Shown here in pieces: positions 3,594 to 64,000 of a DNA stretch of 64,000 nucleotides. Position 1 is the stretch's first letter. Each line of letters opens with the position of its first letter. A program made the translations under genes and the position numbers. The stretch is taken from the NCBI GenBank assembly GCA_044892505.1, contig CM097882.1, positions 368,652,001 to 368,716,000 of the forward strand, written 5' to 3'. The notes beneath the pieces are model-generated. The model made no database searches. It was not told where the DNA came from and worked only from the letters and a program-made list of their open reading frames with translations. The DNA comes from Schmidtea nova (Eukaryota).

Positions 3594-3595
3594 AC

Positions 3596-7900: not shown

Positions 7901-8049
7901 CCACAAAAGAAAAAACCCCGGCAGAAATAAAAACTCAAAAAAAACACAAACACATCACATTCAACTCCAAAAACTCGATAAAACTGTTCGACAAGGACAC
8001 CATAATCACACCCCTTTACAAAAAACGCTATAGCGATTGCCTCAAATAA
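4907..8049 (+). pseudogene. pol: pol of element A (protease, RT, RNase H, integrase, GPY/F) broken by frameshifts and stops
   Basis: Motifs LIDTGS, MPFGL, YLDD, LATDCS, integrase HHCC, HIDIVG, TDQG, GKIER and KYEGPF are spread over ORFs 4928-5818, 5830-6111, 6042-6509, 6612-7223, 7037-7663 and 7696-8049. Confidence 0.92.
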
Positions 8050-8329
8050 AAAATACACAAACATACACGAGCAAAACACAAGCACAACACAGCGAAATGT
8101 ACAGTTTTTATTTTTTGTGTAAATATGTAAAAGTTACAGATTTTTATGTTCTATGTAATTATGTAATTTATGTGGTTAAATTGTAATTTAACAAAACAAA
8201 ACAAAAAACAAACAAAAAAACAAAAAAACAAAACATAATAAAACAAAAGAGAATAAAAAAAGTTTTAAGTTATTGTTAGTGCTTAAAATATAAATGTTAA
8301 TTTTTATTCGTTTGTTAACCTCCGGTTTT

Positions 8330-8340
8330 AAAGGGGGAAG
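8330..8340 (+). promoter_or_regulatory. Polypurine tract of element A
   Basis: AAAGGGGGAAG lies 3 nt before the TGTGG start of the 3' LTR. Confidence 0.85.
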
Positions 8341-8343
8341 TTA

Positions 8344-18065: not shown

Positions 18066-18470
18066 GTAAGAGATAAATTGTTTATTTTAATAATTAATCG
18101 TAAAATTTGACAATAAATTCAAACTTTAATTGTTATAGTTCAATTTACCTTTATTATCTTTTCGATCAACAGGAACAAAAAAGTTTCGATTTTCGAAAAT
18201 ACACTTAAATATACTTTCATTTTTAAAATTTTTATATCTGCTTCAGGTTTTCTTTATTCACTTAGATTTACAAGCTATTTTTATCGGAACTCCTTGTATT
18301 TTTAAACATTCAGTTTTAAATAAAAACTGAAGTAAGATAATAATTCAAACAAGATAGAAATATATTTACTAAACTCAATTATTTTAACCAAAAATACAAT
18401 AGGACATTAATTAATTTATTTTACATTTAAAGTTATTCTATTTTTAATATTTTTAACCCAAATCTTTATT

Positions 18471-18970
18471 TTCGTCGTGACCAGACCCGCCGGCTCGGAA
18501 TGTTCTGACAACAGAGCGCGAGCTTGACGTACTATTTCAGTAAGGCTCATTTCCTGAATTTTTGCCGAGGCTCTCATCTGTTGGGACACTGGCAATGGCA
18601 AACCTGTAACAAATGCTCTTTTGAGCAAATTATCTGATTCAATTCCAGCCAGTGTAGCCAATTGCTTTAAATCAGCGTGAAAAACGTCCACCGGCTCCCC
18701 GTTCCATGACCGGGTTCGAAATTCATCGTAGGCCTTGAAACCGTCCATTGAAAAGGTGTCCAGTTACGCCCTTTCGATTGTGTTGCAGCATCGCTTGTCT
18801 TTTTCTGCCAAATAATCATAGACCAAAAAAGCTGGTCCCTCTAATAACAATGGTAGCACGAGCGAAACATCTTCTTTTTTTAGATGAGCTGCCACCAATT
18901 TCAATTTTTTGAGCCAAGACGAGAATTCACCTATCCCGTCATAGGGCTTTATCAACTTTATTATTTCCAT
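18471..18970 (-). pseudogene. gag: gag N-terminal part of element B (inverted block)
   Basis: MEIIKLIKPYDGIGEFSSWLKKLKLVA...RAFVTGLP... is clearly homologous to gag of element C (38472-38972). Confidence 0.85.
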
Positions 18971-18971
18971 T

Positions 18972-18983
18972 GCCGCGATAGCT
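18972..18983 (-). promoter_or_regulatory. Non-canonical PBS-position sequence AGCTATCGCGGC (element B)
   Basis: Immediately follows the LTR end ...TTTTACA and immediately precedes the gag ATG. Identical in element C. Confidence 0.65.
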
Positions 18984-19221
18984 TGTAAAATAATCATTAA
19001 GAGGAACGAGATAGTGAGCACACATTTATTTAATTAAAAACATACATAAATATAGCGATCTAAATTACCGCAACGTAATATGTTGTCGACAAGAACTATT
19101 GCACAATAGTCTAGTCGCTTTAAGACTGTTACGTAACAGTATTGCAGTATTTTCTTGCACAGTAAATTATAAATTAATATGTGTATAAATCGTAGGACTA
19201 TTATGTCACGATATTTTCCCG
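18984..19221 (-). repeat. 5' LTR of element B (inverted; first ~4 nt lost at the breakpoint)
   Basis: Reverse-complement match to 22182-22419 with a few substitutions. Confidence 0.9.
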
Positions 19222-19226
19222 ACGAA

Positions 19227-22166: not shown

Positions 22167-22177
22167 TCACGGGGGAA

Positions 22178-22419
22178 TGTGCGAGAAAATATCGTGACAT
22201 AATAGTCCTACGATTTATGCACATATTAATTTATAATTTACTGTGCAAGAAAATACTGCAATACTGTTGCGTAACAGTCTTAAAGCGACTAGACTATTGT
22301 GCAATAGTTCTTGTCGACAACATATTACGTTGCGGTAATTTAGATCGCTATATTTATGTATGTTTTTAATTAAATAAATGTGTGCTCACTATCTTGTTCC
22401 TCTTAGTGATCATTTTACA
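22178..22419 (+). repeat. 3' LTR of element B (242 bp)
   Basis: TGTG...TACA, preceded by PPT GGGGGAA at 22171-22177. Confidence 0.9.
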
Positions 22420-35392: not shown

Positions 35393-35479
35393 TGTTGTTT
35401 CTATAAAGACAAGAAAATCACGCTTTATTTTAAAAATCTATTATACTCAAATTTCTGCGTATTCAAACAAACCTTTACA
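35393..35479 (-). repeat. 3' LTR of element C (87 bp)
   Basis: TGTA...AACA on the - strand, with AATAAA inside. Confidence 0.9.
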
Positions 35480-38334
35480 TCTCCCCGTGATTTTCGTCTT
35501 CGTTCACGTTAAAACTTGTTTCAAAATCATCAAGGTATCGAGGTCTTCTGGTCCTGACTCTAAGTTCATCTAGGCGCAAGTAGTCTAATGTTGGATTATC
35601 AACGCTTGTTAGTCCTTCATCGTTGTTGTTATCCACTGACACTTCGTTGACAGCAGGTCGTATATCAAAATAGTGGCGCGGTATCCCGTTGATTTCGAAG
35701 TTGGTCGATGAATTTACCTTGGTTACACTCCCCTCACCCATGTTGAGGTGCATTTCGCATTTGGTGGTTTAACGTAAACTGCATCGCCAACTTGGAACGA
35801 AGTATACTGTGTCTTCCCTTCTGTATTACGTGCGCCATCTCCTTTCTACCAATATGAAAACACGGGAGAGGATGGAGGCGTTTTGAATTTTTCATTAGGT
35901 GCTAGGTTGTACCAGTATACCATGTCCAATACTCCCTTGTTGGTTCTGGCTGACATACGTTTAATAGTATGATGGTTCCGTTCTATTATACCGTTCCCGG
36001 AAGGCCTATAAGCACATCGAAACACACATTTTACACCCCATTTGTAGCACAGTGCTTTCATTTGTGTTGACCGAAATGAAGACGCATTGTCGATCACCAG
36101 TTCATCAGTTGAACCTCGTTCTCTGAAGATCTGTTCAAGGTTCCGTGTAATGGTCTCCGCATCTTCACTTCTTATTTCCCTCCACAGAGCGAAACGACTC
36201 GGTCCACAATCAATCACAGTCAAATAAAGCTTACTTAAATAGTGTGTAACATCCATAGCCAGTCTCTTCCATGTCTCCTTAACGCTCAACTCTCCATGCT
36301 CCCATTTAACAGGCGCTGGATCGATAGATTGACACTCTACACATTTACCTATTATTATCTTAACATTCTCAAGCGTAACGTCCGGACAAAGTTGCTTTGC
36401 AAAATACAACGTCTTCTTGGCTCCAAAATGATGCTGTCTGTGACTTTCTCGTACCACTTCGCTCATAACAGCAACGGTGCTTACAGTTGGTTCATCACAC
36501 GATTTAACCCAAGTCAGCTATTTGTTACTGACTCTTGTGAGTACATCTGCTTTGTTTTTATCTGTCGGAACAAACTCAACCGAGATCGTTAAGTCATAAC
36601 TCTTTCGTAATTCACAGATAATCTGCAGACGTCTTCGTACTAGCATTTCAGCAATTCCATGAGTTCGGATTCTAGCAGTATCCGTTAAAACTGAATCTAT
36701 CCAACTCCTAACGGTATCGGAATCTGTTATTACAACTAAGTTGCTTCTTTCCCAGCTGATGGCTAAGTTAATTCCCTTTATCACTGCATCCAGCTCTGCA
36801 AGGTTTATATGAGCAAAATCGTTTTTCTTCCTCATCCATGATGCATCTTCGACGATTTTACCTGATATTTCAAACACCACTCCTAATGCCAGATTACTTG
36901 CATCGCACCAGAGTATTGTAGATCCTTCTTTGTTTACGTGCCCCTCACCAGACACCGGATCACTTTCTTTCACACGATACATCATTTCGTCGACCATTCT
37001 TAGCGCGATCTTTCCAATCGAGTCATCCCACTTACTCCCAGCACTGTGTCGTTTTATATAGCTACTCGATACTCTCAACCATCCAGCAACTGGATAGTGC
37101 CCAAAGAGTTGACCGCAGAGTGAAAATAACTCCCTTCTTGACATGTCTGTAAACTCGCTGTCTGGCAAAATGTATCCACGGTGCCACGTACGACCGTTAA
37201 TACTCGTTTGAAGCTGGAGACCTAGCACTCTTGCATTATAAAACTCTTTCGGTGACTTTGTAATTAGCCCGTATGTTGCCAAATGGCTTATTACTTCATT
37301 GACGTTTATTCTCGACTGGTCGACAATAATGTCGTCAATATAACTGTCTGTTGCTTTCCTGATGTCTTCTCTTAAACGTAATACCTTTCGTACTATTGTT
37401 GACATTATTTTTGGAGCCACATTTAAACCAAAACCGAGTCTCGTTAGAAAGTATCCGTTCCCTTTGAAACTAACCCTTTGATGCTCCCATAGCTCTTTTT
37501 CCACATGGATCTGAAGATAAGCATTTTTAAGATCAATTAATATAACCTGTTCGCCCATCATTCGCCATCACCTTAATGATTCGCCACATACGTCACTTTG
37601 TTCATTATGACTACTAACATATTTATTTAGTTCCCGAAAATTCATTACCGGGCGAACTTTTCCTTTGTTTATTTGCTCTACTGCTAATAACGGGATTTTT
37701 CCATACGCGACGTCTTTCGTTGGAATTAGCCATCCTTCTTGAATCCACCGTTCAACCTCCGTATCAAACTTGATCTGTAGCCCTGGATCGATTTTGTAAT
37801 TTGAAATTCTATTCAATAGTACAACTGGTTCTGCTTTCCATTTCCACTTCACGGTCCACTTGCTATCAATGAATACTGCTGAAAAATCACCATCTTCAAT
37901 TCGCACATTTTCATTTGACTGATCCAACATCTCAGCCACGCACGATACATCTGCAATACCTGGAAAAGATACACCAGTCTTGTCAATTTAAGACCACCAA
38001 GCATCCCTATTACGTCCATTCCTAAAATCATGTCAACATTTAGTGGTAGATTCAACAACGAGACACAATCAACACTCAATAATTTACCACCAACAATCAG
38101 TTGAACTTTCACATCACGCATACACTTGACTAGTGATCCATCCGCAGTCATGATACTCCCATTCCGCATAAATCGATTCTTCGCAATTCTGGCTGACACG
38201 ACTGATTTGGAACATCCCGAGTCGATCAATGCTTTCACGGACTCCCCATTGGTCATGACAGAAATAAACTAAAGCGCCATTATATTCGTGCTGGAGTAGA
38301 CGCTGGCGCAAGCGTTACTCCTTTTCGGTTTCCC
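35475..38334 (-). pseudogene. pol: pol of element C with premature stops
   Basis: ALIDSGC, LIDLKNAY, YIDDI, WCDASN, HINLAEL, LAMDVTH, IDNASS and GIIER. GGGAAAC slippery site at 38328-38334. Confidence 0.9.
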
Positions 38335-38972
38335 GACTCTGAATTTTTGGTACACTCCTTTGCAATGTGGCCCTTTTCTTCACACCGCCTACACTTCTTT
38401 CCTTGTTTCTTAAAGCAACGTCCTTGTATATGGCCATTCTTTCCGCAATACAAACATTTCTTATACTTGTCTTATTTTCCCACAACAGCCGAACATAGTT
38501 CCATAGTGTCGCAGTTTACTAAAACTCGGGACTGTTTCAAAACATCAACAAGAGACATCTGCTGAATTTTGGCATTGGATCGTAACTGTTGTGACGTTGC
38601 TGTTGGCAAACCCATAATGAATGCGCTTTTTATTAAAATCTCATTGTTTATCTTGGCCAATGATGCTAAGTTTTTGAGATCATTCAAATATACATCGACT
38701 GGCTCATTGCACCACTTTCGTTCACGGAATTGGTCATATGCTTGGAACATATCTATGGAATAGACATCGATTAGAGCATGTTCGATCTTCAATGCGTTGC
38801 CCTTGTCTTCCGCACTCAAATACTGATATACAGCGAAAGCTGGCCCATCTAGGTATAATGGAATAAATGATTCTAAACCTGCGATTTTCTGAATTTTTAC
38901 CACTAGCTTCACTTTTTGAATCCACTGTTGAACATCGCCTTCTCCTCTGAAAATTGGGATCATCTTGTCCAT
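38275..38972 (-). pseudogene. gag: gag of element C (stop at 38472 before the two CCHC knuckles)
   Basis: ORF 38472-38972 continues after the TAA into CLYCGKNGH...C and CRRCEEKGHIAKEC. Confidence 0.85.
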
Positions 38973-38976
38973 TATT

Positions 38977-38988
38977 GCCGCGATAGCT
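38977..38988 (-). promoter_or_regulatory. Non-canonical PBS-position sequence AGCTATCGCGGC (element C)
   Basis: Directly after the 5' LTR end. Identical to element B although the two LTRs are unrelated in length and sequence. Confidence 0.65.
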
Positions 38989-39075
38989 TGTTGTTTCTAT
39001 AAAGACAAGAAAATCACGCTTTATTTTAAAAATCTATTATACTCAAATTTCTGCGTATTCAAACAAATTTTTACA
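38989..39075 (-). repeat. 5' LTR of element C (87 bp)
   Basis: Direct repeat of 35393-35479. Confidence 0.9.
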
Positions 39076-50007: not shown

Positions 50008-50081
50008 TGTGAGTTATCGCGCGTTTTTTGGTGCTGTTTTTAAAATGTGTTTTGTTTAAATGTTTAGATTTTTTATTATTA

Positions 50082-50349
50082 TGCTGGGATTATGGGAGGG
50101 TTTCAAGTAATTCAAATAAATTATTAATCATTAATTGAACGACTATTGATGAGTACGTATACTAGGGATTCCACGCCCATAACCATACATAACATGACTA
50201 CTACACGCGTATGCCCTTGACTATTCCCTACTAGTCAAGTTGGTACTGCATACGGTGGTGGAAAAATGATGGGCAGGTGAGCTTTGTTGCCAAAACTACT
50301 CCCCATTTATCTTCCCTCGGGTCCTTGCTGCCGATAGAAGGTCTTACGC
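50082..50349 (+). ncRNA. Conserved structured motif, copy 3
   Basis: Perfect stems CGTATGC/GCATACG (50208-50214 / 50248-50254) and CTTGACTA/TAGTCAAG (50216-50223 / 50232-50239). Loop TTCCCTAC. Confidence 0.55.
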
Positions 50350-50620
50350 ATTTTCATTCTATGGATGTTCGCCCTACTGAATTTTTTTATCACACGCCTT
50401 TCCCAATGACTTTCCTTAATTTATCTACAATGTAATTAATCAGTCCCTGCGTATAAATGGTCGGTTTGAGAAAATTTCGGGTGCGATTTTTTTATTTCGA
50501 TGATTTCATTGTTGTTATTTTATTTTATTTAGTAACATCCCCCGATGAGAGACAAAATTTACACAGAAATACTTTTATTAAAATACTAAAAACAGGATTG
50601 TTATTTTACATGGATGTTTC

Positions 50621-51205
50621 CTAAGCGAATTCCAGACTAATCTCCTGAATCAATTCCGCTTCGGTTAAGGAGTTCAAGTGGTGGATTTGTTCGTCCAGAC
50701 GCTTCGCAAATTCTCGGCGACGACGACGCTGTCGCGATCCCATTCGATGTTTTCGAAGCTGTTGGGTTATGACCGGTGCTGACGCTATTGTTCTCGGGGG
50801 ATCACTGAGAAAAATAGGCAAATCTTCCGTTGTAAGAGAGGGGGCCAGGATGATTCCCTCTTCCGTCCCGCAAGCGACATCTTGGTGAGTGCATTGTATC
50901 CAGCGCTGAGCCGTGATCGGCCGGATTAGCGCTCGCAATTCGGAGTCGATGTAACTTCTTGTTACTGCATTTAGGCAATTTCGGAGTTCTCGCTGGACGG
51001 CATCTAGTTCCAATTTGGTTGCAGCCAGTGCTTCCTGCATTCGCTCAAGTTTTTTCGACTGGTCCTTCATTTGTTCGGGCGAGAACCACTTCGCTCTCAA
51101 TTCATCATTGGCGACCGTGAGTCGCTTGATCTGTCGCTGCTGGTCCCTCAACTTCCTCTCTTGGATTTGTCCCATGATTTTCTTGGAATTTTCTGAAGTC
51201 GGCAT
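50621..51205 (-). CDS. 194-aa ORF inside the LTR: coiled coil, Arg-rich motif, Leu-rich tail
   Basis: Intact ORF with elevated GC. RMGSRQRRRRREF. TTCAG 5 nt before the ATG. Confidence 0.6.
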   Translation of the reverse strand: MPTSENSKKIMGQIQERKLRDQQRQIKRLTVANDELRAKWFSPEQMKDQSKKLERMQEALAATKLELDAVQRELRNCLNAVTRSYIDSELRALIRPITAQRWIQCTHQDVACGTEEGIILAPSLTTEDLPIFLSDPPRTIASAPVITQQLRKHRMGSRQRRRRREFAKRLDEQIHHLNSLTEAELIQEISLEFA

Positions 51206-51523
51206 GTTATCTGAATATTATAACGATAAATTCGCTGGAGGACCTATCAACAATTCTATTTTATTTAGTCTACTATTTACTATTGTTAAACGAGATGCAT
51301 ATTAATGTTTTTAATTATTGAGTTCTCTACAAAATTATTTAACTATCTAATCATTGAAGACTCAAAAGATTTATTGAACTAATTTTATATTAATAAATGA
51401 ATTTCCTAATGACTATAACAACTACAATACTAAATCTACATGACAACACTATTAACAAAATGAGACACTTCCGAATTTTTAAAACATTTATTAAATTCAA
51501 AAAACAGGCGGCCATTGATTCCG

Positions 51524-51991
51524 CTATTCATCTTCGGTCATTTTTCCTCGATATGAAAATATCGATCTGATTTGCAAATTTGTGTTGATATTGGACGAGG
51601 CCTGCTGAAAACGGATCCTCTCAGCTTCCCGAAGGGGTCGTATTGCTGTATTGAACTTGAACCCCAATTCCTTGAAGGTAGAGGCTGGAATGAACCCCCA
51701 ATATATCACACATTTCGGGAATCCTCCCTTATCCAACATCAGGACGAACCAGGCGGCGTGCCATGATTCGAATTCCTCGTCTGGAATGATTGGCCAACTA
51801 GCGCATCCCCGGTACCATACGTGATGCCGTGGATGGTCCCATACTGTAAAGGGACAGGCGGTTTCAAGCTCTCGGCGCCATGCCCACATTTTTTGATGGA
51901 TTTGCTGTAAAATCTCGAAAGGAGCCGGCTTTAATGGGCTAACTCGGGCTCGTTCTTGTCGTTTTTTGATAGTGTATCTATGCTTAGTCAT
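51524..51991 (-). CDS. 155-aa Trp/aromatic-rich ORF inside the LTR, function unknown
   Basis: Intact ORF with elevated GC in an AT-rich context. TTCAG 15 nt before the ATG. Confidence 0.55.
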   Translation of the reverse strand: MTKHRYTIKKRQERARVSPLKPAPFEILQQIHQKMWAWRRELETACPFTVWDHPRHHVWYRGCASWPIIPDEEFESWHAAWFVLMLDKGGFPKCVIYWGFIPASTFKELGFKFNTAIRPLREAERIRFQQASSNINTNLQIRSIFSYRGKMTEDE

Positions 51992-52250
51992 GATTCCAAA
52001 ACGATGCTGAATTTTATAATAGTTACAATTTACATCAATAATTAATTATAGTAAATGTTATCTCTCATCGTGATACCCTTATTATTTGCCTTCCCCTTAG
52101 ACCTTAGCTGAAATCACGAGAAACTGTCGTTCGCTATGGTATGCATTACTCTCGTATCTACTTAGCTTTATCTGTTTACGATCACTATTATAGTTGAAAA
52201 AAAAAAAAAAATGGTGATTTGTCTGCTTGGATTTTCAAAATATTGATACC

Positions 52251-52520
52251 TCAAAACGGAAGCTCTCTCACGTCATGTATCCCTAGCTTATTCGAAAAAC
52301 GCTCCTTTGTATCAAATGCGGTCGACATAATTTTCCTAAGGTTTATTAGACGTTTATTAAACAGCTGCGCTGTGGTGAGGGTGAAAAATTGTGCCTCCTC
52401 CCGGTTAACAAATTCTTTCATATCTTTAAGCTTTATCAAAAAATTATCGTCCCCTCTGTAGCTAAAATGATCGGAAAATAATTCCCCGGATTTGTTGGGT
52501 GTCCCATGTGCAAGTCTCAA
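52251..52520 (-). CDS. Possible 89-aa ORF inside the LTR
   Basis: Open frame with plausible composition. No recognisable motif. Confidence 0.3.
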   Translation of the reverse strand: MRLAHGTPNKSGELFSDHFSYRGDDNFLIKLKDMKEFVNREEAQFFTLTTAQLFNKRLINLRKIMSTAFDTKERFSNKLGIHDVRELPF

Positions 52521-52894
52521 CCACTACTAATAAAATTAGGTTTTGCTATTTATTACTTTACCGTGTGTGGAGCCCTCGAGCACCACGCCACGGACGGACA
52601 CCTTGGGAACCTAAAGCTCCCAACGGCGCGAGATTAATATGATAGATTAAACAGTTTAAATACGACATAAATCAAAATGAGATGAATAATATATTATAAT
52701 ATGATAATGACATATGAATACAACATCAAATAATGTACCAAAAATACCTCAATTGAATTCTGAAAATTTATTGATCAAAATCGGTCTAAACGGTGATCGT
52801 CGTCGGGGCAATGTGCAATCTAATGCGAATTTTTAGTTAAAGTCTAAATTTCAGTCTAACAAAGTCTACTGAAGTCTCACTCTAGTCAAACGTC

Positions 52895-52962
52895 TCAGTC
52901 TGATTTTATGAAAAATCTGATCAGTATTTATACTGATCAGTCGTGTCTAGACCGACCAATCA
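52895..52962 (-). promoter_or_regulatory. LTR core promoter: inverted CCAAT, TATAAATA, Inr-like TCAGAC
   Basis: CCAAT at 52956-52960. TATA at 52925-52932 inside a perfect 10-bp inverted repeat. TCAGAC at 52898-52903, about 25-30 nt downstream. Confidence 0.65.
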
Positions 52963-53531
52963 GGTTCGGCCATTTTCAGGGTGGTTTTTAATTATTGTTC
53001 TTGATTCTAATTAATTTTTATTTTTTAGATTGTATTCTTCCTCGGAGGTCTGGGTTTCAAAAACAATTATTCAATAACAAGTACTTTTATTTTGTTTTAA
53101 TTACCATTATTTGTATTTATTTTGTTTTTTAGATGTCTCCTGGGCCAGTTAATATCTCGAAATTCCTCTATTTTTATTTATAGCTTGTACTTAGTTTGTC
53201 TATATTTTTATTATATTACTCCTTTCTTTTAATAAATAAATATTCCCCTTTTTATCTTATTTTTCTCTTTTTTGTTTTAATTAATCTACTTTTATTTCAC
53301 TGTTCTCTCTATTTGGCTGGCCCAACATCACTCGGGGACCCCTAAAATTGCGTCCCGCAATTAATTATACATTTACACCTATATCATCATACATAAAAAT
53401 TAAGCAGATAAATGTCAATTTACATATACACAAAGAATCACGTAAGGTGATAGATTTTATACGTAAGCACAAGGTCATATTATTGTTAAATGTAAGTGGA
53501 TCATACATAAAGTGAATGTAATATATCAGTT

Positions 53532-54104
53532 TTACACAAGCTCTTTGATTTCATGATTGGTATTGGATTGGATTGGGGTTCTTTCGCTGATTGTTCGTAG
53601 TTCGTAGTGGCTTTGGATTCGGTTTAGGTGTTTTCTCATTCGCTTTTGGGTTCTGATGTCTTGTATTGTTGTTCGATTCAGGATGACATGTTTTTGTTTT
53701 AAGATCTTCACTCGGTATGATGTTATGAGGATTGTGATCGCGATAATGGTCACGCTGAGTGCAAGGATTATTATAATTGCGATGATCCATTTTTCTTGAT
53801 ATTCTATCTCTGCTTGGGCTAAGCTTTTTATGGGTTCTCGACCTTCTTTTAGGGTTTTTCTGATTGTTTTCAATTTGATTCGATGTTCATATAGGACCTG
53901 TTGAAATTTTTCATCGTTTGGGTTGTCTGATGTTATCTGTTGAAGTTGGGTGATTTCTTGTGTTGCTTCGCTGATTAGTTTATCTAGTTCTTGATAGGTT
54001 TTCTCGGGTAGGGCTCGTAGCTCCTTCTCTGTGAGTTGAAGATCTTCTCTTTGTAGGGTGATTGTTATTAGGTATAGGAATATCGGTATTCTGAGCTTTT
54101 TCAT
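53532..54104 (-). CDS. Cargo ORF4: 190-aa predicted type-I membrane protein with a luminal coiled coil
   Basis: Hydrophobic N-terminus, heptad-rich middle, WIIAIIIILALSVTIIAITILITSY transmembrane segment and a basic tail. Confidence 0.75.
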   Translation of the reverse strand: MKKLRIPIFLYLITITLQREDLQLTEKELRALPEKTYQELDKLISEATQEITQLQQITSDNPNDEKFQQVLYEHRIKLKTIRKTLKEGREPIKSLAQAEIEYQEKWIIAIIIILALSVTIIAITILITSYRVKILKQKHVILNRTTIQDIRTQKRMRKHLNRIQSHYELRTISERTPIQSNTNHEIKELV

Positions 54105-54186: not shown

Positions 54187-55248
54187 TTACACAATCGTCT
54201 CGTTTGGTTCGTAGAAACCTTCGTCCTGAGGCTCTACTTGGTTCGTGGGGAGTGGTATCCAAACAACCCTGCTCCTCCACATTTCGACTTCATCTCGATA
54301 CATGTGAGATATCTGGATCTCCTCGTCTAGCAAATATTCTAGGTAATTTGCTTGTTCTGTTAATGTTTCTATTTGTTCCTCTAATTCGATTACTTTTGTC
54401 TTTTGTTCGTCTTCTTTTATCATTTTTGTTACGGCTGCCGTTATACTTGCTTCTTTGGGTATTACTGATACTGTTACTCGTTTCTGTTTCAATTCTTCGT
54501 TTTCTTTCATCAAATTCGTTAAATTTTCCTCATAACTTTGCTTCGCTTCCTTTAACCTTTCTCTGGTTCTTTTTAGCTCTATTTTCCTCTGGGTAATCAC
54601 TCCTTGATAACCATTTATATCTCTCTTCATCTCTTCTTCTTTCTGATTCCATATTCCGGTGAGCATAGATTTCAGTTGTTCTTGATTAGCTAGTTCTTCT
54701 CCCATTCTTTGAACTTGATAGGTTAGTCCTTTAATTTTCTTTGCTTGTTCGCGGATAAATTGCTGTCTTTTTGTATTCCATCTTTTATTTAACACTTCCT
54801 GGTTGATTTTTTGCTCTAACTCGTCTTTTAGTTCATCGATCTCTTTATATAACTTCCAGTCATCACTATAAGCTGTCCTTTCTATTATTTCTCTAGCTTT
54901 TTCGTAAGATTCTTTCGCTTCTTTCTTCCAGTATCTTGCTTGTTCTGTAATCGAATACATCTTGTGTTCAGCTTCCATCTGCTGTCTGTCTCTTTCCTCT
55001 CGTCGCTCTTTCATCATTCTCTGGTAATATTCCTTTTGTTGTTGTAGCATTTTGTATACTTCTTCTATTTTTTCTCGACTTCTTTGACTTGATCTTTCCG
55101 CTTCTTTTAATAATTCGGCTTGTCTCTCTATCTCCTCTTGCTTTCCATAATATGCATTGACCCATATTTCAATCTGTTCTAGATGATCGCTAATCGCTTC
55201 TGCTTGATGCATCGTAATTTCCTGTAAGCATACCTCGATATTTCCCAT
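54187..55248 (-). CDS. Cargo ORF3: 353-aa long coiled-coil protein ending ETIV
   Basis: Intact E/K/R/Q-rich ORF. Confidence 0.8.
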   Translation of the reverse strand: MGNIEVCLQEITMHQAEAISDHLEQIEIWVNAYYGKQEEIERQAELLKEAERSSQRSREKIEEVYKMLQQQKEYYQRMMKERREERDRQQMEAEHKMYSITEQARYWKKEAKESYEKAREIIERTAYSDDWKLYKEIDELKDELEQKINQEVLNKRWNTKRQQFIREQAKKIKGLTYQVQRMGEELANQEQLKSMLTGIWNQKEEEMKRDINGYQGVITQRKIELKRTRERLKEAKQSYEENLTNLMKENEELKQKRVTVSVIPKEASITAAVTKMIKEDEQKTKVIELEEQIETLTEQANYLEYLLDEEIQISHMYRDEVEMWRSRVVWIPLPTNQVEPQDEGFYEPNETIV

Positions 55249-55362: not shown

Positions 55363-56745
55363 TTACGTCAACCATCCTTTTCTATCTGCTTTCTCATTCC
55401 TTTCCATTTCTATGTATAGGGTGTCTGCATATAATCGTTCCCATAGGCTTTCTTTCGTTATAAACATCGGTTCTCCCGCTGCTAATCCACATTCTGTGGT
55501 TGGTTTCTCGCTCGTACTCGCATGTTTCTCTGTCTCAAAGAATTTTTCTACTGGTTTTGTTACACTTCTGATTCTTACAATGACTCCTACTTTCAAGGGC
55601 CATTCTACTAGGTCGTCGTATTCTCCTTTACATAGCGAGAAAAATATTGACACATGTGTTCCTCGTCCTCTTCCGTCTCCATTTGGGTATAGCTTCAATC
55701 TCACTTTAGCTCCGTTTCTCCATAAATAAAATGGTGGGCTTATTACTGCTGTTTTCGTCATATTTCGGGCCTCTGTTAATTTGTTTCTAAAATCTGTCAC
55801 TTTCCACACATATGGTGCGATTGGTAGCTTTTCCTCGGTATCCTGGGTGAGTTTGTTGTACTGGATTTTCATTCCTTTAGCCAATTCTTCGATAGCTTTT
55901 ATCTTTTCCTCCATCTTTTCTCGTGTTAGTTCGAATTGCTCTCTGGTTTCCAACAGTAGGTTTACCATTATCTTGTGTGACTCTATTTCTCTTTCTAATT
56001 TTTTGATTGTTTGTTCGGTTTCTTTTGTTGTTTCGTTTGTCATTTCCGCATGCTTTAGCAATGCTTCCTCCAGATGTTGTTTCATGGTTTGTTGCGTTCT
56101 TTTCTCCATACATCCCTGTTTGTTATAAGGACATTCCCTTGGTTTCTCCGTGCACACTTTCCAATGTTCTTGTAATTTTACTTCTACCGTTATTTCGCAT
56201 TCGTTTGAACATATTCCTACATATTGTCTACATACTTTCTCCTCTTTTACATTCAGGTGTTCTTCTTCGATCTTTCTCCTCGTTTCTCGAGCTCCACAAT
56301 ATTCGCATAGACTTTCCTCTTCTTTACATTCATCTTTGTGCTGCTCTTTATTCTTTATAGTTATTTTTTGTTGGCATTTGTTACATTCAGTTCTCTTCTC
56401 TTCGCAGTTCTCCAGATGGTTCTCGAGATCGCGTATTTGTCCTTGCCATATACATGGTTGATTTATACATTCGGTTTTCGTGTTCATGATTTCTCTCTGA
56501 GTTGCTCTATCTGGTCCGGTTTCTTCGAATTTTATTTGTCCTTCTTTGCATTCTGGACATTCTGGTGGTCTTTTCATACTTAACTCGTGTATGCATTTGG
56601 TACATACTCTGCATCCGCATAGGGTTTGTCTTGGTTTCAATATTATGTTTTTACAATTTACACAAGTGAGTCTCTGACTCCATTTCCTGTTCTCGGCTCT
56701 CAAAATTTCGATTATCCGCTCTTCGGCTTTTCCTTCTGTATTCAT
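55363..56745 (-). CDS. Cargo ORF2: full-length TRAF-family protein (RING, TRAF zinc fingers, coiled coil, MATH)
   Basis: CVNC...CGCRVC..C...CPEC RING. Repeated C..C...H...C fingers. YVWKVTDF...SPPFY...KVRLKLYPNGDG.G.GTHVSIFF...GEYDDLVEWP MATH domain. Confidence 0.93.
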   Translation of the reverse strand: MNTEGKAEERIIEILRAENRKWSQRLTCVNCKNIILKPRQTLCGCRVCTKCIHELSMKRPPECPECKEGQIKFEETGPDRATQREIMNTKTECINQPCIWQGQIRDLENHLENCEEKRTECNKCQQKITIKNKEQHKDECKEEESLCEYCGARETRRKIEEEHLNVKEEKVCRQYVGICSNECEITVEVKLQEHWKVCTEKPRECPYNKQGCMEKRTQQTMKQHLEEALLKHAEMTNETTKETEQTIKKLEREIESHKIMVNLLLETREQFELTREKMEEKIKAIEELAKGMKIQYNKLTQDTEEKLPIAPYVWKVTDFRNKLTEARNMTKTAVISPPFYLWRNGAKVRLKLYPNGDGRGRGTHVSIFFSLCKGEYDDLVEWPLKVGVIVRIRSVTKPVEKFFETEKHASTSEKPTTECGLAAGEPMFITKESLWERLYADTLYIEMERNEKADRKGWLT

Positions 56746-56836
56746 TCTACAATGATATATACACTTGATTTGTTATCTATTTTTTGATTTTTCTTGTTTT
56801 TGTTTTTACATATTTACAATTTTTCGCTTTATTTAT

Positions 56837-57193
56837 CTACGGCTCGTTTGTTGAATCTGGTTCTGGGTCATTTTCTGATCTGTTTATTGCCCAATTTGTC
56901 CATCCATCCTCTGCTTCTTCTGTCTCTCCCATTGTTAAACGGTCTATCTCTATTGCTTGTCTCTGATTTATGTCGCTCATCACTTGATTCTCTCTGGTAA
57001 GTTGCGTTATCAATCTCTGTTGCTCCTCGATTCTGTGGAGTTGTTCAAAACTATTATTATAACTTTCGGATAACAAATTCTGTTTCTCAATTAACTGATT
57101 TTGTAGTGAGTTGATTGTTCGTATTAACATGTCACACTGGGCTTTCCATCGCATAGCCATAGTAGTTTCTGCTATTTCTTCCTGTTCGTTCAT
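56837..57193 (-). CDS. Cargo ORF1: 118-aa coiled-coil protein with an acidic tail
   Basis: Intact Q/E-rich heptad ORF, co-oriented with its neighbours. Confidence 0.7.
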   Translation of the reverse strand: MNEQEEIAETTMAMRWKAQCDMLIRTINSLQNQLIEKQNLLSESYNNSFEQLHRIEEQQRLITQLTRENQVMSDINQRQAIEIDRLTMGETEEAEDGWTNWAINRSENDPEPDSTNEP

Positions 57194-57318: not shown

Positions 57319-60300
57319 CTATATCACCATCACTGTCTTTCCTTCGTATCGCTCTTCATCTTCTATTTGTCTCCAAAATTCTTTACCTTTCGTCCTCCTT
57401 TGGAATTCTTTATGTACTTCTTCCGGTAATTCTATACTGTAGTTCATAATCTTTATATCTGGCCAATGTGTTATTGGTTTCTTGTTGAATACATCATATA
57501 TCCATATTATTAATAATACTGTTATTACTGGAATAGTTGCTGCTAGTATTCTTAGACCAATTAGTTCTCTAACTTGTTTGTTTACGTCCATCTTCGTAAT
57601 TTCACTCTGGTTAATCATTGGTCCGTATTGTCCCTTTAGTTTATTTAGTAGTTGTTCTCGTTCTTGTTGTTTTCTTTTAACTTCTTTAATTACTTCTTCC
57701 GGCGTCCATCTTGCGTAAGGGTCTATTACTACTTGTTCTGCGTCCATTCGTTTCGTTGTCTGACTTAATTCTTTAAATTCGAGTTTTCTCACTTTCCCTT
57801 TGGACGTTGAGTTTACCGGTGTGTAGTACGTTTCGCATCTTTCCTGCTGATTTCCCAATATGTCCGTCTTTTCTACCGCACATATCTCGTATTCTCTATT
57901 AAATTTCAGATTTTTGATACTCATTTCTTCTTTTCCTTTTATGTTTTCGCAGTATCGTGGCTGTCTTTCTTTTTGTTCCTGAACTACTGCCCAACATATT
58001 TCTAACGTTTTATTGTCTATTCTCCATAGTATAAGAGTTGTTGTAGTATTCTTTTCGGTTTTTCTTTGTATTTCTTGGTTTTTCTGTTGTCCATTAGGTT
58101 TAAAGGTAGTGGTATACCTCGCTTTTCCTTTGTTCCGTTGTCTTCTACTTTTTCGCGTTGTCTTTCCAACTCTTGTTCTGGTGGGTGTTTTATATAATTT
58201 GCATTCCAATTCATTTACTGTTATTTTGTCGCTCTTCCTGATCAGGCATATTTCGTACGTTTGATTACTTTCTAACCCTTCTATCTGTATTGTGGTTGTT
58301 CCTCTGTTTGTTCGACATTGCGGCGGTGTATTCTGGTTTGTTTTCTTTTCCTGCTTCTTCCAGCATACGCCTTTGACGTCCGGTTCTATTCCGGTTAACT
58401 CTAACATTATAGTTGTTCTCCGTTTGGTGCGTTTATTTCTTCTTCCTCGTCGTATGAACTTTATTGTTTCCCCAGGTTGAAATGTTTTACAACTTGTCGT
58501 TCCTTTCTTGTGTCTTTCTTTTTCTAGTAAACATAGTTCATACGTCCTGTCTGCTTTTACTTCTGATATCTTGGTTACTTTATTTGTTTTCCTTTTCCGA
58601 CTCGTCTTTATTTCGCTTACGCCAATTTCTTCGTTGCTTCTGGCCCAACACTTTGGGTTGGTGTTTTGGGTGTCGTTCATCTCTGTTACTGCCATTGTGT
58701 CAATGTCTATCCCTTCTTCTAACCGTTTTAACATTGTTAATAAGAGTGCTAAACATAGTAATTCTGTTTGGTAGGTCACTCTTTCGGTCTCGTTTGTGGT
58801 TACTCTTGCTTCGGGCCTGTCTATGGTAATTTGTATAGTTGGCGTTGTTCGTCTGTCTATTGTCTGGGGTTTTTTGTTTTTTGTTCCTTGGGTCTCTGTT
58901 TTTCCACACTTTCCTACGACGTAGTCTCCTTTGGATGTCTGCTGTACTGTTATGGTTACTTTGGGTGTTAGGTAGTTTGCACATGCGATTGTGTTGTGTG
59001 ATCTTGGATTCTTTTGTTTTCTGATGGTGCATATTTTGTACCAAGTATCTAGCTCTAAGTCATCGATCTCTATGATTTCTTGTTCATATTCTGAGATCCT
59101 GCAATCCATTGGACTATTTTGTCCCGATATTTTGTCCTTTTTTGACCAACATACTCGTTCGATTCCTTTTGCGTTTCCAATTTGTATTGTCGCTCTTTCT
59201 TCACATATCATTCCTTGAGTTGGACTAATTAAGGTCATGATTACCGTTAGTAATAATAGTTCTGGTTTAAAGAATGGGTTTATTGTTTGTTTGTAGCCTG
59301 TTCTTTTTGCTTCGTTTTTATTTTTATAGTTGTTGTTTCTTTGTTTCCCAAATTCATTTTTCTTATCATTTTTCTCTGTGTCCCTTCCTTTCTCTTCACT
59401 GTCCTCTTCATCTAATAACTCATGATCCTCTGGATTTTCTCGAGTACTATCGTCGTCGTTTCCTGTATTGTCGCCTCCCCTTTGGTCGTTGAAAATGTCG
59501 TCCTCGACATTAATTGCTTCTATCATTTTTTCATACGTTATGGTTGTGAGTATACTTGCTTCATATTCTTGTGTTACTGCCTGCTTAGGTATTTCCTTAT
59601 CGGTTAATTTACAATCTAGAATCTCTTTCTTGGCTTTTATCCAATTATTAAGGTACGTTTTCATTAGTTCTTTCCATTTGTCCGTACGTTCTGTTTCCTT
59701 TGGGTTGTTTGTGAATCGTAAATCTTTTCTTCTCATGAAGATATCTATTATCTTTGGCCATTTGTTTATTATTAATGCACACTTTATATACAAATTTTGG
59801 CCTTGTTCCATGCACTCGTTGATCCTGAATGCTGGTTCATTGGTGTTTGGGTTCATCCAATTGAGTATTGCTTCAGTTAGTTCAGCGTTATGCATCATGG
59901 AATGTACGCTAGCTTTTTTAACTGTCCTTGTAAGGTATTCTATTTCCTCCTGATTTGTGATTGTTTTTATAAAATTTATCACTTCCCAATTGTGCGTTAA
60001 CAACGCTACGTCTAGTATTGAGCTGTCTTTGTTCGTTCTTCCCATGAGTCTTGCACCTGCTTCGTACAGTTCCTGTAACACTCGGGTTTTTGTGTTCGCT
60101 CTTGCTGCGAATATCATGAGGGTATCTCCCTTTTTATCTTTCATGTTCATGTCACTTCCGCAATCTTGCATCAACCGTGCAATTTCGACTACCCTCCTAT
60201 CTTTTCCTGCTCGTAAGGCTCTATGTATTGGCAATACTCCATTCTTTGTTAATAAGAAAGTCACTGGCATTTCTCTTTTTATGATCATCATATCGTTTTC

Positions 60301-63300
60301 ATTGTAAGTTCCTTCCGCATATGCGTGTACCTTTTCCACAATTGCTCCGAGTATCTCCAGTGTATGTTTAGAATTTTCGAATTCTGGTAATAGTTCTTTT
60401 GCTTTGTCCTGTATCGCATCTAACCTTTCTTGATATGGTACCTCTGCGCTGAAAAGTGGTGTAAATTTCCTTTTGCTTTCTCTTTCCTTTTGACATAGGA
60501 ATTGTTTGCATTTTTCGGGGTGGTTTAATGTGTCTATTAGTTTGTCATACTCCTCCTCCACCGTTTTATATTTGTCTTGAAAATTGGATATATCTTTGTA
60601 AGTTATCGTCTTGGTTAGCGATTTTGCACACCATTCCCTAATTTTCCTGAATAATGCTTCTTTTTCATTTTCGAATTTACACTCCTCTTTGTTTTTGGAA
60701 ATTATGATATTTCTTCTGTCTAATAACGTTAACAGTGTTTTCTGGTCACAAACTAATTTTAATAGGAATTGTAATAACGCGTTTTGTCCTTTACTGTATA
60801 CTTCGTTTATATTTAATACCCATGTATCATTTTCGGATCTTTTCCATTTTATTAGCTTGCGTATTGTTTTGCAGTTACCGATTTTTATTGCCTCCTTGAT
60901 TATATCACCTTTGATCAGTTCGTCTATTTCCCAAGTGGCCTTCTCGATTATTTGTTTGAGCATTATCTGATTTGAGCTCCATATTGCGTGATTCAAGACT
61001 GTTTTGTTTTCTCTATCGCGTTCCGTCCAGTTGAAATCGGCATTTATCAAAAGGTCTATTATTGCTTTATCCGATTTGTAGATGGCTGCTACCATTAATG
61101 GTGTTTCTTGTTCGCTATTCCCAAAACCAAGGTGTTGGTTTGTTTCCTTAGCGATTTTTAGAAATTCTTTTACTCTTTCTACTTCTCCCCATTTTATGGC
61201 GTTATGTAATGCTGGTTGTCCTCCTATGTCTTGTAGTGAAAGTATTTCTGGAATTTTCTCCAGTAGTTCTGAAACGACTGGTTTTGTTGGTAGTCCCCTT
61301 GCGTAATCACTAATTATCGACTGAATGTCTCTTAATATATCGTCTCTGACATGCCATTTTCCCATTATTTCTCTGGCTTTTAGTACAATTTCCTTGTTTC
61401 TTTTTTCTTGTTGATTGTTTTCTGCTTCTGTACTTTCATTGGTTGCTCTGAGCATATTCATTCTGGCTGTCTGGGATCTGGTTATTATTCGTTCTTCTGG
61501 CGCTGTGGTTATTGTCTTTGGTACTTTTTTGCATCTGCATGTATTAACGTATATTGGTCGTATCAATGGTCGATTAACAAGTTTTACCTTCACATTGTTT
61601 TCCTTTTTGTATATAACTTCGTAAGGGCCTTTTCCTGGTCTTTGTAGTTTTTTAACGGTTCCTAGTATTATTTCTGGGGTTTCTATCATTACCCAATCTC
61701 CGGGTTTAAGATCATTTGTTTTAACATTTTTCTTTTGATCGTGTAGGTCCTTGTAACTTTCTTGATAAAACTTTATGTTTAGTTCTGCTGTCTTCCATAT
61801 CTCTTGCATTCGTTCTTTGAATTTGGTGACGTAATCATCTTCCTCCATATATTGAGACAAGGGTGGTTGATATTCAAGATCTATTGGCATATTGCATTCC
61901 CTTCCATACATTAATTGAAATGGACTCAATTTTGTTGCTGCGTGTATCGACATTCGGTATGCTATTAGACATAGCTTTATGTACTCATCCCAATCTGTTT
62001 GGTGTTTGCTTACATAATTGGATAACATTCGAATCAATGTGCCGTTAAATCTTTCCGTTTGTCCATTGGTTTGCGGATGATATGGTGACGTTCGTAATTT
62101 GGCTATTCTGAAGTAATTTGTTACTTCATCTAATATTTCACTCATAAAATTTGTCCCTTGATCTGTCAGTATTTGTTTCGGGGTTCCGTATCGACAACAT
62201 ATTTCCTCTACTAAAATTCTTGCTACGGTCTTTGCTTTTTGATCCGGCATCGCAAATGCTTCAGGGAATTTAGTCAAATAATCCGTTATTACCAATATAT
62301 ATTGATTCCCGTTTAAACTTTCTGGCAATGGTCCTATTACATCCATCGCAATGGTAGTCATTGGTTCCGCTGGTATTGGCATGGGTTTTAAGGGATTTTT
62401 CCATTTCTTCCCACTATCCTTTCTTGTGGCACAAGTTAAACAGTTCTTTATCCATTCCTTTACGTCTTCGTCCATTGTTGGCCAATAATATTTTTGTCTC
62501 ATGCGATCTAATGTTTTCTTATCGGACATGTGTCCTCCCAACTTTCCGTCGTGGTATTGAGTTATTATCTCTTTTCGTCTATTACCTGGCAGACACATTA
62601 ATCGTTTTTCTCCATCCTGTATTAATAACCATCCTTTTTCTATTGTGTATCGATGTTGGTATTTCCTCATGTGTTCTTTTAACTCCGCATTGTCTTTGAA
62701 TACATCCATATTCCGTGAGCTTAGGAATTCTATGATGGGTCTTAGTTCTTTATCCTCTTGCTGATCTTTCTTTAACTCGCTGAAATCCAAATCCTCTGCT
62801 ATCATTATGCATATTCTTTGCACTTCTGGGTCTGTTAATTCTGGAAACGTTAATCTTGACATGCAATCTGCGTTGGCATTCGCTTTTCCTGATTTGAATT
62901 TTATATCTGGTGAATATTCTTGTAATTGCATCGCCCATCTCATTAATCTGCTGGATGTTTCCTTATGTTGTCCTAGCCATACCAGTGGTTGATGATCCGT
63001 GGTTATGCATATAATGTGTCCCCATAATAGATATTTAAAGTGTTTTATTGCTAATATTATTGCCAATGCTTCTCTCTCCGTTACTGAATAATTCTTCTCG
63101 TGTTTCTTGAATGTTCTGCTATAATATCCGATCACTCGTTCTTTACCTTCGTCATCATATTGTCCTAACACTGCTCCTGCTGCATATCCACTTGCGTCAG
63201 TCGCGAGTAAGAACGGCTTCTTGAAATTCGGGTGAACCAATATTGGTGCAGTTATTAGCTTATCTCTCAATGTTTCAAAGGCTGTTTGTTGTTCGCTTCC

Positions 63301-63999
63301 CCATATGAACGATACGTCTTTCTTTACTAGCTCCTGGATTGGTTTTGCAATTCCTGCGTAATCCTTTATGAATTTTCTATAGTAACCGCATAATCCGAGA
63401 AATTCTTGGATCTGCGTTATAGTCTTTGGTATTGGACATTCTTTTACTTTATCAATGTTTCTGGGATCCGGTTCCTTTCCTTTTGCGGACACAATATGTC
63501 CTAAGAATGTCACTTTCTCTTTTGCCCAATCACATTTCGATGGTTTGAGCTTGAGTTTCCATTGTCTCAATCTCACAAATACATCTCTGATATCTTGGAT
63601 GTGTTGTTCAAATGTGCCTGAATATATTAACAGATCGTCGATGTAAACCATGCATTGTTTTATGCCGTGGGTGACAAAATTCATACATCTTTGAAATGAT
63701 GCTGGCGCATTGGTTAGTCCAAATGGCATTTTCCTAAATTGGTACAAGTCTCTTCCGATAGTGAAAGCAGTTTTCTCTTTGTCTTCCTCCTTCATTTTAA
63801 TTTGCCAGTATCCGCTTTTCAAATCCAATGATGTAAAATATGCCGCTCCTTGTAATGTCAATAACATCTCGTTGATGTCCGGTAATGGGTAGGTATCCCT
63901 TTTTGTAACTGCATTTAATCTCCGATAATCAATACAAAATCGTTGTGTTCCGTCTTTCTTTTTCACCATTACAACTGGGAATTGCCACGGTGAGCAGCT
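57319..63999 (-). CDS. pol: Pol (RT, RNase H, integrase, GPY/F) fused in frame to ankyrin repeats and a signal / FN3-like / TM module; open beyond the window edge
   Basis: MPFGL, YIDD, LATDAS, HHCC, AMDVIG, TDQG, QTER and GPY (about 64000-61600). Ankyrin motifs GQPALHNA, ETPLMVAA, LPIHRA and DTLMIFAA (about 61225-59950). Hydrophobic signal at 59212-59265. Four CW...L....YEIC...C repeats. TM at 57497-57565. No stop over 2216+ codons. Confidence 0.92.
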   Translation of the reverse strand, partial: SCSPWQFPVVMVKKKDGTQRFCIDYRRLNAVTKRDTYPLPDINEMLLTLQGAAYFTSLDLKSGYWQIKMKEEDKEKTAFTIGRDLYQFRKMPFGLTNAPASFQRCMNFVTHGIKQCMVYIDDLLIYSGTFEQHIQDIRDVFVRLRQWKLKLKPSKCDWAKEKVTFLGHIVSAKGKEPDPRNIDKVKECPIPKTITQIQEFLGLCGYYRKFIKDYAGIAKPIQELVKKDVSFIWGSEQQTAFETLRDKLITAPILVHPNFKKPFLLATDASGYAAGAVLGQYDDEGKERVIGYYSRTFKKHEKNYSVTEREALAIILAIKHFKYLLWGHIICITTDHQPLVWLGQHKETSSRLMRWAMQLQEYSPDIKFKSGKANANADCMSRLTFPELTDPEVQRICIMIAEDLDFSELKKDQQEDKELRPIIEFLSSRNMDVFKDNAELKEHMRKYQHRYTIEKGWLLIQDGEKRLMCLPGNRRKEIITQYHDGKLGGHMSDKKTLDRMRQKYYWPTMDEDVKEWIKNCLTCATRKDSGKKWKNPLKPMPIPAEPMTTIAMDVIGPLPESLNGNQYILVITDYLTKFPEAFAMPDQKAKTVARILVEEICCRYGTPKQILTDQGTNFMSEILDEVTNYFRIAKLRTSPYHPQTNGQTERFNGTLIRMLSNYVSKHQTDWDEYIKLCLIAYRMSIHAATKLSPFQLMYGRECNMPIDLEYQPPLSQYMEEDDYVTKFKERMQEIWKTAELNIKFYQESYKDLHDQKKNVKTNDLKPGDWVMIETPEIILGTVKKLQRPGKGPYEVIYKKENNVKVKLVNRPLIRPIYVNTCRCKKVPKTITTAPEERIITRSQTARMNMLRATNESTEAENNQQEKRNKEIVLKAREIMGKWHVRDDILRDIQSIISDYARGLPTKPVVSELLEKIPEILSLQDIGGQPALHNAIKWGEVERVKEFLKIAKETNQHLGFGNSEQETPLMVAAIYKSDKAIIDLLINADFNWTERDRENKTVLNHAIWSSNQIMLKQIIEKATWEIDELIKGDIIKEAIKIGNCKTIRKLIKWKRSENDTWVLNINEVYSKGQNALLQFLLKLVCDQKTLLTLLDRRNIIISKNKEECKFENEKEALFRKIREWCAKSLTKTITYKDISNFQDKYKTVEEEYDKLIDTLNHPEKCKQFLCQKERESKRKFTPLFSAEVPYQERLDAIQDKAKELLPEFENSKHTLEILGAIVEKVHAYAEGTYNENDMMIIKREMPVTFLLTKNGVLPIHRALRAGKDRRVVEIARLMQDCGSDMNMKDKKGDTLMIFAARANTKTRVLQELYEAGARLMGRTNKDSSILDVALLTHNWEVINFIKTITNQEEIEYLTRTVKKASVHSMMHNAELTEAILNWMNPNTNEPAFRINECMEQGQNLYIKCALIINKWPKIIDIFMRRKDLRFTNNPKETERTDKWKELMKTYLNNWIKAKKEILDCKLTDKEIPKQAVTQEYEASILTTITYEKMIEAINVEDDIFNDQRGGDNTGNDDDSTRENPEDHELLDEEDSEEKGRDTEKNDKKNEFGKQRNNNYKNKNEAKRTGYKQTINPFFKPELLLLTVIMTLISPTQGMICEERATIQIGNAKGIERVCWSKKDKISGQNSPMDCRISEYEQEIIEIDDLELDTWYKICTIRKQKNPRSHNTIACANYLTPKVTITVQQTSKGDYVVGKCGKTETQGTKNKKPQTIDRRTTPTIQITIDRPEARVTTNETERVTYQTELLCLALLLTMLKRLEEGIDIDTMAVTEMNDTQNTNPKCWARSNEEIGVSEIKTSRKRKTNKVTKISEVKADRTYELCLLEKERHKKGTTSCKTFQPGETIKFIRRGRRNKRTKRRTTIMLELTGIEPDVKGVCWKKQEKKTNQNTPPQCRTNRGTTTIQIEGLESNQTYEICLIRKSDKITVNELECKLYKTPTRTRVGKTTRKSRRQRNKGKARYTTTFKPNGQQKNQEIQRKTEKNTTTTLILWRIDNKTLEICWAVVQEQKERQPRYCENIKGKEEMSIKNLKFNREYEICAVEKTDILGNQQERCETYYTPVNSTSKGKVRKLEFKELSQTTKRMDAEQVVIDPYARWTPEEVIKEVKRKQQEREQLLNKLKGQYGPMINQSEITKMDVNKQVRELIGLRILAATIPVITVLLIIWIYDVFNKKPITHWPDIKIMNYSIELPEEVHKEFQRRTKGKEFWRQIEDEERYEGKTVMVI

Positions 64000-64000
64000 T

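Follow-up and report, generated by a model that had tools for sequence, protein, structure and literature searches.

Within the window (the whole stretch of 64,000 nt analysed here), a complete, intronless TRAF2/3/5-type open reading frame (ORF) is present on the minus strand. This gene is the second of four short genes downstream of the polyprotein in a Burro-type gypsy element of 28,426 nt (28.4 kb). The features are given below, each with the evidence used in brackets.

50078..50081, no strand: target-site duplication (TSD) of 4 nt, matched at the far end of the element (end comparison)
50082..53327, minus strand: 3' LTR of 3,246 nt, TG...CA, with two ORFs inside, 194 and 155 aa (LTR comparison)
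53532..54104, minus strand: 190-aa accessory ORF with a single predicted membrane helix near aa 103 (ORF list, prediction)
54187..55248, minus strand: 353-aa accessory ORF of no family, with an acidic conserved C-terminal tail (ORF list, Pfam, alignment)
55363..56745, minus strand: intronless complete TRAF2/3/5-type ORF, 460 aa (ORF, Pfam, PDB matches, model)
55405..55812, minus strand: MATH / TRAF-C domain, aa 312-447 (Pfam, PDB matches, Foldseek)
55843..56061, minus strand: predicted coiled coil, aa 229-301 (structure model)
56050..56469, minus strand: five TRAF-type zinc fingers, aa 93-232 (Cys/His units, Pfam)
56548..56664, minus strand: RING domain with eight Cys ligands, aa 28-66, Cys replacing His (residue reading, PDB fragment matches)
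56747..56763, minus strand: TGTA...TAG motif that stops 1 nt short of the TRAF ATG, a likely splice acceptor (sequence pattern)
56837..57193, minus strand: 118-aa accessory ORF of no family, first gene of the cassette (ORF list, Pfam, cross-family alignment)
57319..64000, minus strand: 3' part of the polyprotein frame with RT, RNase H, integrase, ankyrin repeats, Cys-containing repeats, membrane helix and tail (ORF list, Pfam)

All 460 codons of the TRAF ORF are open, with zero internal stops. The RING ligands are C28, C31, C43, C45, C48, C51, C63 and C66, and Cys45 sits where the solved TRAF2, TRAF5 and TRAF6 have His, as the preliminary description had noted (CGCRVC). Five Cys/His finger units follow at aa 93-232. 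In Pfam, MATH_2 was matched at aa 312-447 (E 5e-21) and zf-TRAF at E 8e-5, under the curated cut-off, and no RING family was matched at E 0.1 or better. The search against solved structures matched aa 22-151 with the RING-finger fragments of TRAF6, TRAF5 and TRAF2 (E 5e-12 to 8e-10), and the C-domain with those of TRAF3, TRAF5 and TRAF2 (E about 1e-22 to 1e-21). Folding from the single sequence gave a pLDDT of 43.5, and the fold based on a 98-sequence alignment was used instead; its mean pLDDT was 93, it contains the helix 229-301 and the MATH sandwich, and its Foldseek matches were TRAF1-6 structures. Hence, the marks of the TRAF family are present, that is, a C-terminal MATH/TRAF-C domain, an N-terminal RING with about five fingers and a coiled coil before the MATH domain (a helix in the model). 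The earlier claim of an intact, lesion-free TRAF was thus confirmed by ORF, Pfam, PDB and model. The gene was also said to share the compositional bias of the element, which proved correct: A is 0.44 in both the TRAF ORF and pol, and third-position A is 0.51 in the former and 0.49 in the latter.

The carrier element

On the element strand, the order of parts is LTR, IAP-type RING gene, gag, Bcl-2-like stretch, fusion protein, protease, RT, RNase H, integrase, ankyrins, Cys-containing repeats, membrane helix, the 118-, 460- (TRAF), 353- and 190-aa ORFs, and LTR. The polyprotein frame runs on past the window end into the protease, the env-like fusion protein and gag (flanking sequence L031), and the twin 5' LTR was found beyond the window (flanking sequence L032). 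The LTR pair, the TSD and the linkage with gag-env-pol confirm that the TRAF gene lies inside a retroelement, as had been proposed. Aligned over 3,249 positions, the LTR pair shows two differences, a mismatch and a gap, and this copy was inserted recently. Target duplications of 4 nt were seen in two further families as well, and a primer-site-like stretch starting TGG recurs in three other families. The gag contains zinc knuckles; upstream of it, the IAP-type RING gene (E 3e-12) has an internal stop in this copy, and after it the Bcl-2-like stretch is weak (E 0.06). The fusion protein is of Monjiviricetes type (E 1e-69) and lies in frame between gag and pol.

We found the gag-env-pol region at the expected distance from TRAF in 20/20 sampled copies of the same family, and in 11 of these 20 one open frame covers the 10-kb stretch. 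In the copy described here, the polyprotein is broken twice beyond the window, at the gag/env and env/protease junctions, so the absence of lesions stated earlier holds for the TRAF gene but not for the polyprotein of the same copy. The gag/env stop and env/pol shift were considered as programmed events and rejected, since other copies are without them.

The assignment to Burro was made by the layout as described in PMC6431247. This layout consists of the PR-RT-RH-IN gypsy order between long LTRs with a TSD, env between gag and pol, ankyrins after the integrase, a size near 30 kb and one polyprotein about 5,000 aa long (open over the 10-kb gag-env-pol stretch in the 11 relatives, interrupted here). 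The Pfam scan of 11 frames matched no BIR family, the only IAP-type domain being the RING upstream of gag; BIR is listed for Burro1 and is not given as family-defining.

Several smaller features of the element were also recorded. The polyprotein finishes (window 57319-59200, minus strand) with Cys-containing repeats, then a membrane helix, then a tail whose WP motif is kept in five aligned copies. The last repeats had been labelled FN3, which received no support, as this region gave no Pfam match and no PDB match in the sequence search; its layout of repeats, helix and WP tail presumably recalls that of cytokine receptors. The tail of the 353-aa ORF (window 54187-54260, minus strand) reads QDEGF and then a C-terminal E-T-x-V across four families, and the frame after the polyprotein in the family with MATH inside the polyprotein likewise ends ETLV. 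We assume that the E-T-x-V end resembles a class I PDZ-binding end. The ORFs of 194 and 155 aa, present in each LTR (window 50621-51205 and 51524-51991, minus strand) are without the A-rich bias of the element, and distant homologues of them are present in the LTRs of other Burro families.

Copies, selection and origin

Among the 6,566 candidates in a protein search of the genome, 92 were scored; 87 of them have at least 87% identity, and in 12 of the 92 the match contains a stop. Exact words inside the TRAF ORF of five families were counted at 90, 151, 117, 70 and 12 places, about 440 in total (reversed-word controls 0), in a count where at least 3 places match words of two families and diverged copies are missed. 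At TRAF identities of 78%, 67%, 52% and 43%, the cassette still runs 118-TRAF-353-190, which makes five related families including that of this copy (43-100%). In a sixth family, only the MATH domain is found, embedded in a 4,706-codon frame, as in Burro1. In the 78% family, RT lies within 10 kb upstream in 12/20 sampled copies and the 118-aa neighbour is present in 19/20. From one 13-kb copy, this family could be taken as a non-autonomous, cassette-only satellite, which was ruled out by RT upstream in the 12 copies. The 13-kb copy itself (G000:C2:219898700-219912140; L073-L075) is internally deleted, with LTRs 99.97% alike and the cassette kept; as it is without gag, env and pol, it likely moved in trans. 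In another copy (L076 5221-6669, minus strand), a deletion has fused the conserved 353-aa ORF tail onto the TRAF frame.

By simple Nei-Gojobori counts, dN/dS against three copies of the 78% family was 0.13-0.14 (RING 0.17-0.21, fingers 0.10-0.12, MATH 0.15-0.16), and against two copies at 92-94% it was 0.22 and 0.26; in the comparison with the 52% family the synonymous sites are saturated. The within-family pN/pS was left out as evidence, since the 30 copies were chosen for high protein score. The MATH domain has a far lower dS (0.39-0.42) than the N-terminal half (>1.0), a gap that suggests inter-family recombination. The element TRAF is under purifying selection between families; the gene is therefore of use to the element, and selection does not indicate the kind of use. 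Taken together with the count of places and the five families, these results establish the TRAF as real cargo of the element and this copy as one of many.

The best full-length named relatives are TRAFs of Dugesia japonica and Dendrocoelum lacteum, at about 29-36% identity, and the general homologous-protein search gave only distant unnamed matches. Judged by these nearest named proteins, the host is probably a triclad flatworm. Cys for His in the RING is common to the D. japonica and D. lacteum TRAFs and to host genes of this genome, while most of the non-triclad rows checked have His. This shared residue points to a host origin; a special or damaging change was ruled out, because Cys is the triclad trait. 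In a MATH tree of 57 rows, the triclad and Burro rows stand apart from 12 outgroup rows (support 100/99), the four accessory TRAFs included form one clade (99/94), and adding the polyprotein MATH and an unnamed public protein to them gives a 90/94 group. A quick full-length tree of 53 rows agrees with it. P0033, a public protein, groups with the Burro TRAFs on a long branch (96 SH-aLRT), and among 93 scored sequences of this genome it has no close relative. The simplest reading of these trees, with a rooting on unnamed outgroups, would be one ancient capture from a triclad host.

Expression and possible role

The spacers of the cassette are 82-125 nt, so its genes lie on the same strand less than 300 nt apart, which is the distance used for spliced-leader operons (PMC12582326). 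Spliced-leader trans-splicing and operons have been described in flatworms including S. mediterranea (PMC12582326). The pattern TGTA-(2-14 nt)-YAG ends 1-3 nt before the TRAF ATG in 5/5 families, where the ATG of the 67% family is the one aligning with relatives. The same pattern precedes the 353-aa ORF in 5/5 families, the 118-aa ORF in 3/5 and the 190-aa ORF in 1/4, against a background of 4/347 other ATGs in the polyprotein region and 10/1,556 ATGs in the first 50 kb of the window; this enrichment is partly circular, because the pattern was drawn from the scored sites and the families are related. In each of the five families, the non-coding parts contain TGTAAA 6-11 times (shuffled mean about 1). 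The conserved motif suggests that the cassette mRNAs may be spliced or trans-spliced. As alternatives to trans-splicing, these sites may reflect cis-splicing, a Pumilio-type element or a 3'-end signal. Among the matches listed in four runs (contigs of unrecorded kind), no joint was found at the acceptor-like sites. In the gag frame (L031 8300-8740, minus strand; relatives L178-L197), the first 80-190 codons are without an ATG in nearly all copies examined, across families. A spliced leader giving gag its ATG at an upstream acceptor-like site was ruled out by an in-frame stop before the gag core in 11/11 own-family copies, and in other families by a varying phase.

The anatomy of the gene, its linkage, copy number, selection and closeness to triclad TRAFs are directly supported. 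On balance, we lean to the reading that Burro carries an intact TRAF which was likely captured once from a planarian host, has been selectively kept, and likely works as a signalling modulator that, in cells with an active element, dampens cell-death or immune responses of the host. The TGTA...YAG before the ATG would be the place where its mRNA is freed from the long transcript of the element, either by splicing or by trans-splicing of a spliced leader. The protein would trimerise through the coiled coil and MATH domain, by analogy with what is established for the TRAF family, and may pair with host TRAFs through the RING and linker helix, so that an altered receptor groove could redirect or blunt their signalling. 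It might act alongside the IAP-like RING gene and the Bcl-2-like stretch in keeping element-producing cells alive; the weak Bcl-2 match and the stop in the IAP-like RING gene of this copy speak against this.

TRAF RING dimers rely on two Arg residues, one in the linker (Arg126 of zebrafish TRAF6, which sits at the dimer and ubiquitin contact) and one in finger 1 (Arg147); heterodimers form as well (PMC5702613). Arg84 and Arg105 of the element TRAF align with these two residues; across four aligned families the linker residue is either Arg or Lys and all RING ligands are kept, and the finger-1 residue varies. The aromatic residue before the PD motif is lost, as in the host triclad TRAFs; this loss and the variable finger-1 Arg count against the modulator reading. 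A near-invariant Tyr of the MATH domain is Ala. Aligned with TRAF3/5, RVYLNGD reads KLYPNGD, SSSF reads ASTS and SGCP reads AGEP, and the groove residues are partly kept; we take these stretches of TRAF3/5 to be those lining the receptor groove. Oligomerisation parts that are kept together with a groove that is altered would fit a protein that modulates host TRAF signalling. In S. mediterranea, cell survival requires host TRAFs (PMC7586133). BURRO1 RNAi failed to rescue smedwi-2(RNAi) animals (PMC8532177), therefore a large effect of Burro products was not apparent in that setting.

The main rival to a modulator of host signalling is a ligase serving the element. Here the TRAF would serve replication, as an active ubiquitin ligase or as a scaffold for particle assembly or membrane-protein trafficking, with host signalling little affected. 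We think this possible but unlikely. The RING ligands and the linker Arg/Lys kept in four families, the fixed cassette shared with two predicted membrane proteins, and the groove unlike that of TRAF3/5 (SSSF reading ASTS) speak for it. TRAF-binding motifs have the forms PxQx(T/S) and (P/S/A/T)x(Q/E)E. Neither form occurs as a conserved motif when the tails of the 190-aa protein and of the polyprotein are aligned, which counts against such a service; the coupling to the element's own membrane proteins, suggested at first, thus gains no motif support from these tails. The version embedded in the polyprotein is also MATH only, without RING, so ligase activity is unneeded in that lineage.

A bolder form of the modulator reading is that the host-manipulation genes of Burro make up an operon-like cassette cut by the host spliced-leader machinery, and that the captured TRAF hetero-oligomerises with host TRAFs and turns off death or immune signalling; we offer it tentatively. 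We are equally doubtful of its further part, in which TRAF, IAP-like RING and Bcl-2-like sequence would form an element toolkit in the manner of large DNA viruses.

Host TRAF genes and known systems

Expansion of TRAFs in planarians has been reported (PMC6109357) and discussed (PMC7586133, PMC8807557). Host loci were sampled from the best 150 of 2,419 MATH-profile candidates, which split into dispersed element copies and a dense tandem-repeat group at C2:405-455 Mb. This region of the genome (G000) is a dense host TRAF/MATH cluster of near-identical tandem units of about 4-5 kb, with one double-MATH frame (L103). It is quite improbable, in our view, that host paralogues are domesticated Burro copies and that element carriage seeded the host expansion. 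Three points favour domestication: introns are absent from several host TRAFs; a single clade of Burro TRAFs and 18 array rows was not rejected by the AU test (cost 15.5 log units, p=0.115), which leaves Burro and the host array as possible sisters; and the host sample comprised best profile scorers only. Against it, Burro cassette or gag genes occur in 0/23 host-like 10-kb TRAF stretches (a short, weak env-like fragment is found in one), and AT skew is 0.36-0.46 in 4 Burro TRAFs vs -0.03 to 0.18 in 12 host ORFs or exons. RING and MATH are on separate open frames in 4/5 array genes examined, which is read as a putative intron. The 18 array-type MATH rows form their own clade (100/100), no host TRAF of this genome nests in the Burro clade in the MATH tree (0/30 host rows) or the quick full-length tree, and the host genes without introns are paired in the trees with TRAFs of D. 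lacteum and D. japonica.

The proposal that retroelement carriage drives such expansions was, therefore, mostly not borne out, though a sister relation was not rejected; no Burro cassette gene accompanies the sampled host TRAFs, several of which are without introns. For these top-scoring loci, the host expansion looks mainly tandem, and the element copies look like a parallel, larger pool. That the TRAF ORF is a recent neutral passenger (a retrocopy) is hardly credible: it is intronless and its intactness could come from recent insertion, yet it is kept across families with saturated synonymous sites, is fully adapted to the element base bias, has closest host proteins merely about 30% identical, and shows between-family dN/dS well under 1.

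The element resembles Burro/GYPSM1 of Schmidtea mediterranea (PMC6431247) in its length of about 30 kb, long LTRs, giant gag-env-PR-RT-RH-IN-ankyrin polyprotein, env in frame between gag and pol, and Bcl-2-like, RING and MATH_TRAF_C cargo. It differs in that the MATH_TRAF_C of Burro/GYPSM1 is inside the polyprotein, whereas here a separate RING-zinc finger-coiled coil-MATH ORF follows it. A Burro-like element of Dugesia tigrina (PMC6431247, 'not shown') likewise has MATH_TRAF_C on an accessory ORF and not in its ORF1 of 5,140 aa, and the three frames here total about 5,160 codons. That accessory ORF is upstream and described by its MATH domain only; the one described here stands downstream, is full-length and belongs to a cassette of four genes. 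With TRAF2/3/5 (vertebrate structures) and triclad TRAF2-like genes (D. japonica TRAF2A, D. lacteum TRAF-2/4/5 and Smed-TRAF-2A/B, PMC7586133) the element protein shares RING, five fingers, coiled coil, MATH and linker Arg, and with the triclad genes the Cys-for-His RING; it differs in sharing only about 30% identity with them, in its A-rich codons, in the groove changes, in MATH Tyr to Ala and in being element-borne. MATH_TRAF cargo of Burro elements, including one accessory ORF, has already been published (PMC6431247). Among the papers listed in the literature searches, we found no full-length RING-to-MATH Burro TRAF and no account of its selection or splicing; figures or supplements of Grohme 2018 or Jurka 2007 may show the ORF, and the available text of PMC11410931 has no mention of TRAF.

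A retroelement thus keeps a whole signalling adaptor/ligase-type gene under selection across long divergence, and the literature remark on Burro as a 'tinkerer' with apoptosis and ubiquitination becomes a testable gene. Through the element copies, the genome gains hundreds of TRAF-like ORFs; domain counts could be inflated, and in planarian TRAF/MATH counts, RNAi and piRNA studies host genes and element copies may be mixed up. Should the acceptor motif be a trans-splice site, the expression of many downstream genes from a 28-kb element would be explained. Since piRNA-guided decay of many traf and ankyrin mRNAs has been reported (PMC6824462), element-borne TRAF and ankyrin sequence might bear on it; direct cross-targeting of host traf mRNAs is unlikely because of the protein identity of only about 30%.

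Elsewhere in the window, smaller ordinary gypsy-like elements occupy 2625-8952, 18416-22419 and 35393-39075; all three have terminal repeats, and their pol frames are broken. A 29-nt tandem repeat at 10700-12000 forms two arrays in opposite orientation. Adjoining the 5' LTR, two head-to-head copies of an RT/endonuclease frame (L032 4768-6456, minus strand, and 6639-9248, plus strand) were seen, which we take to be Penelope-like.
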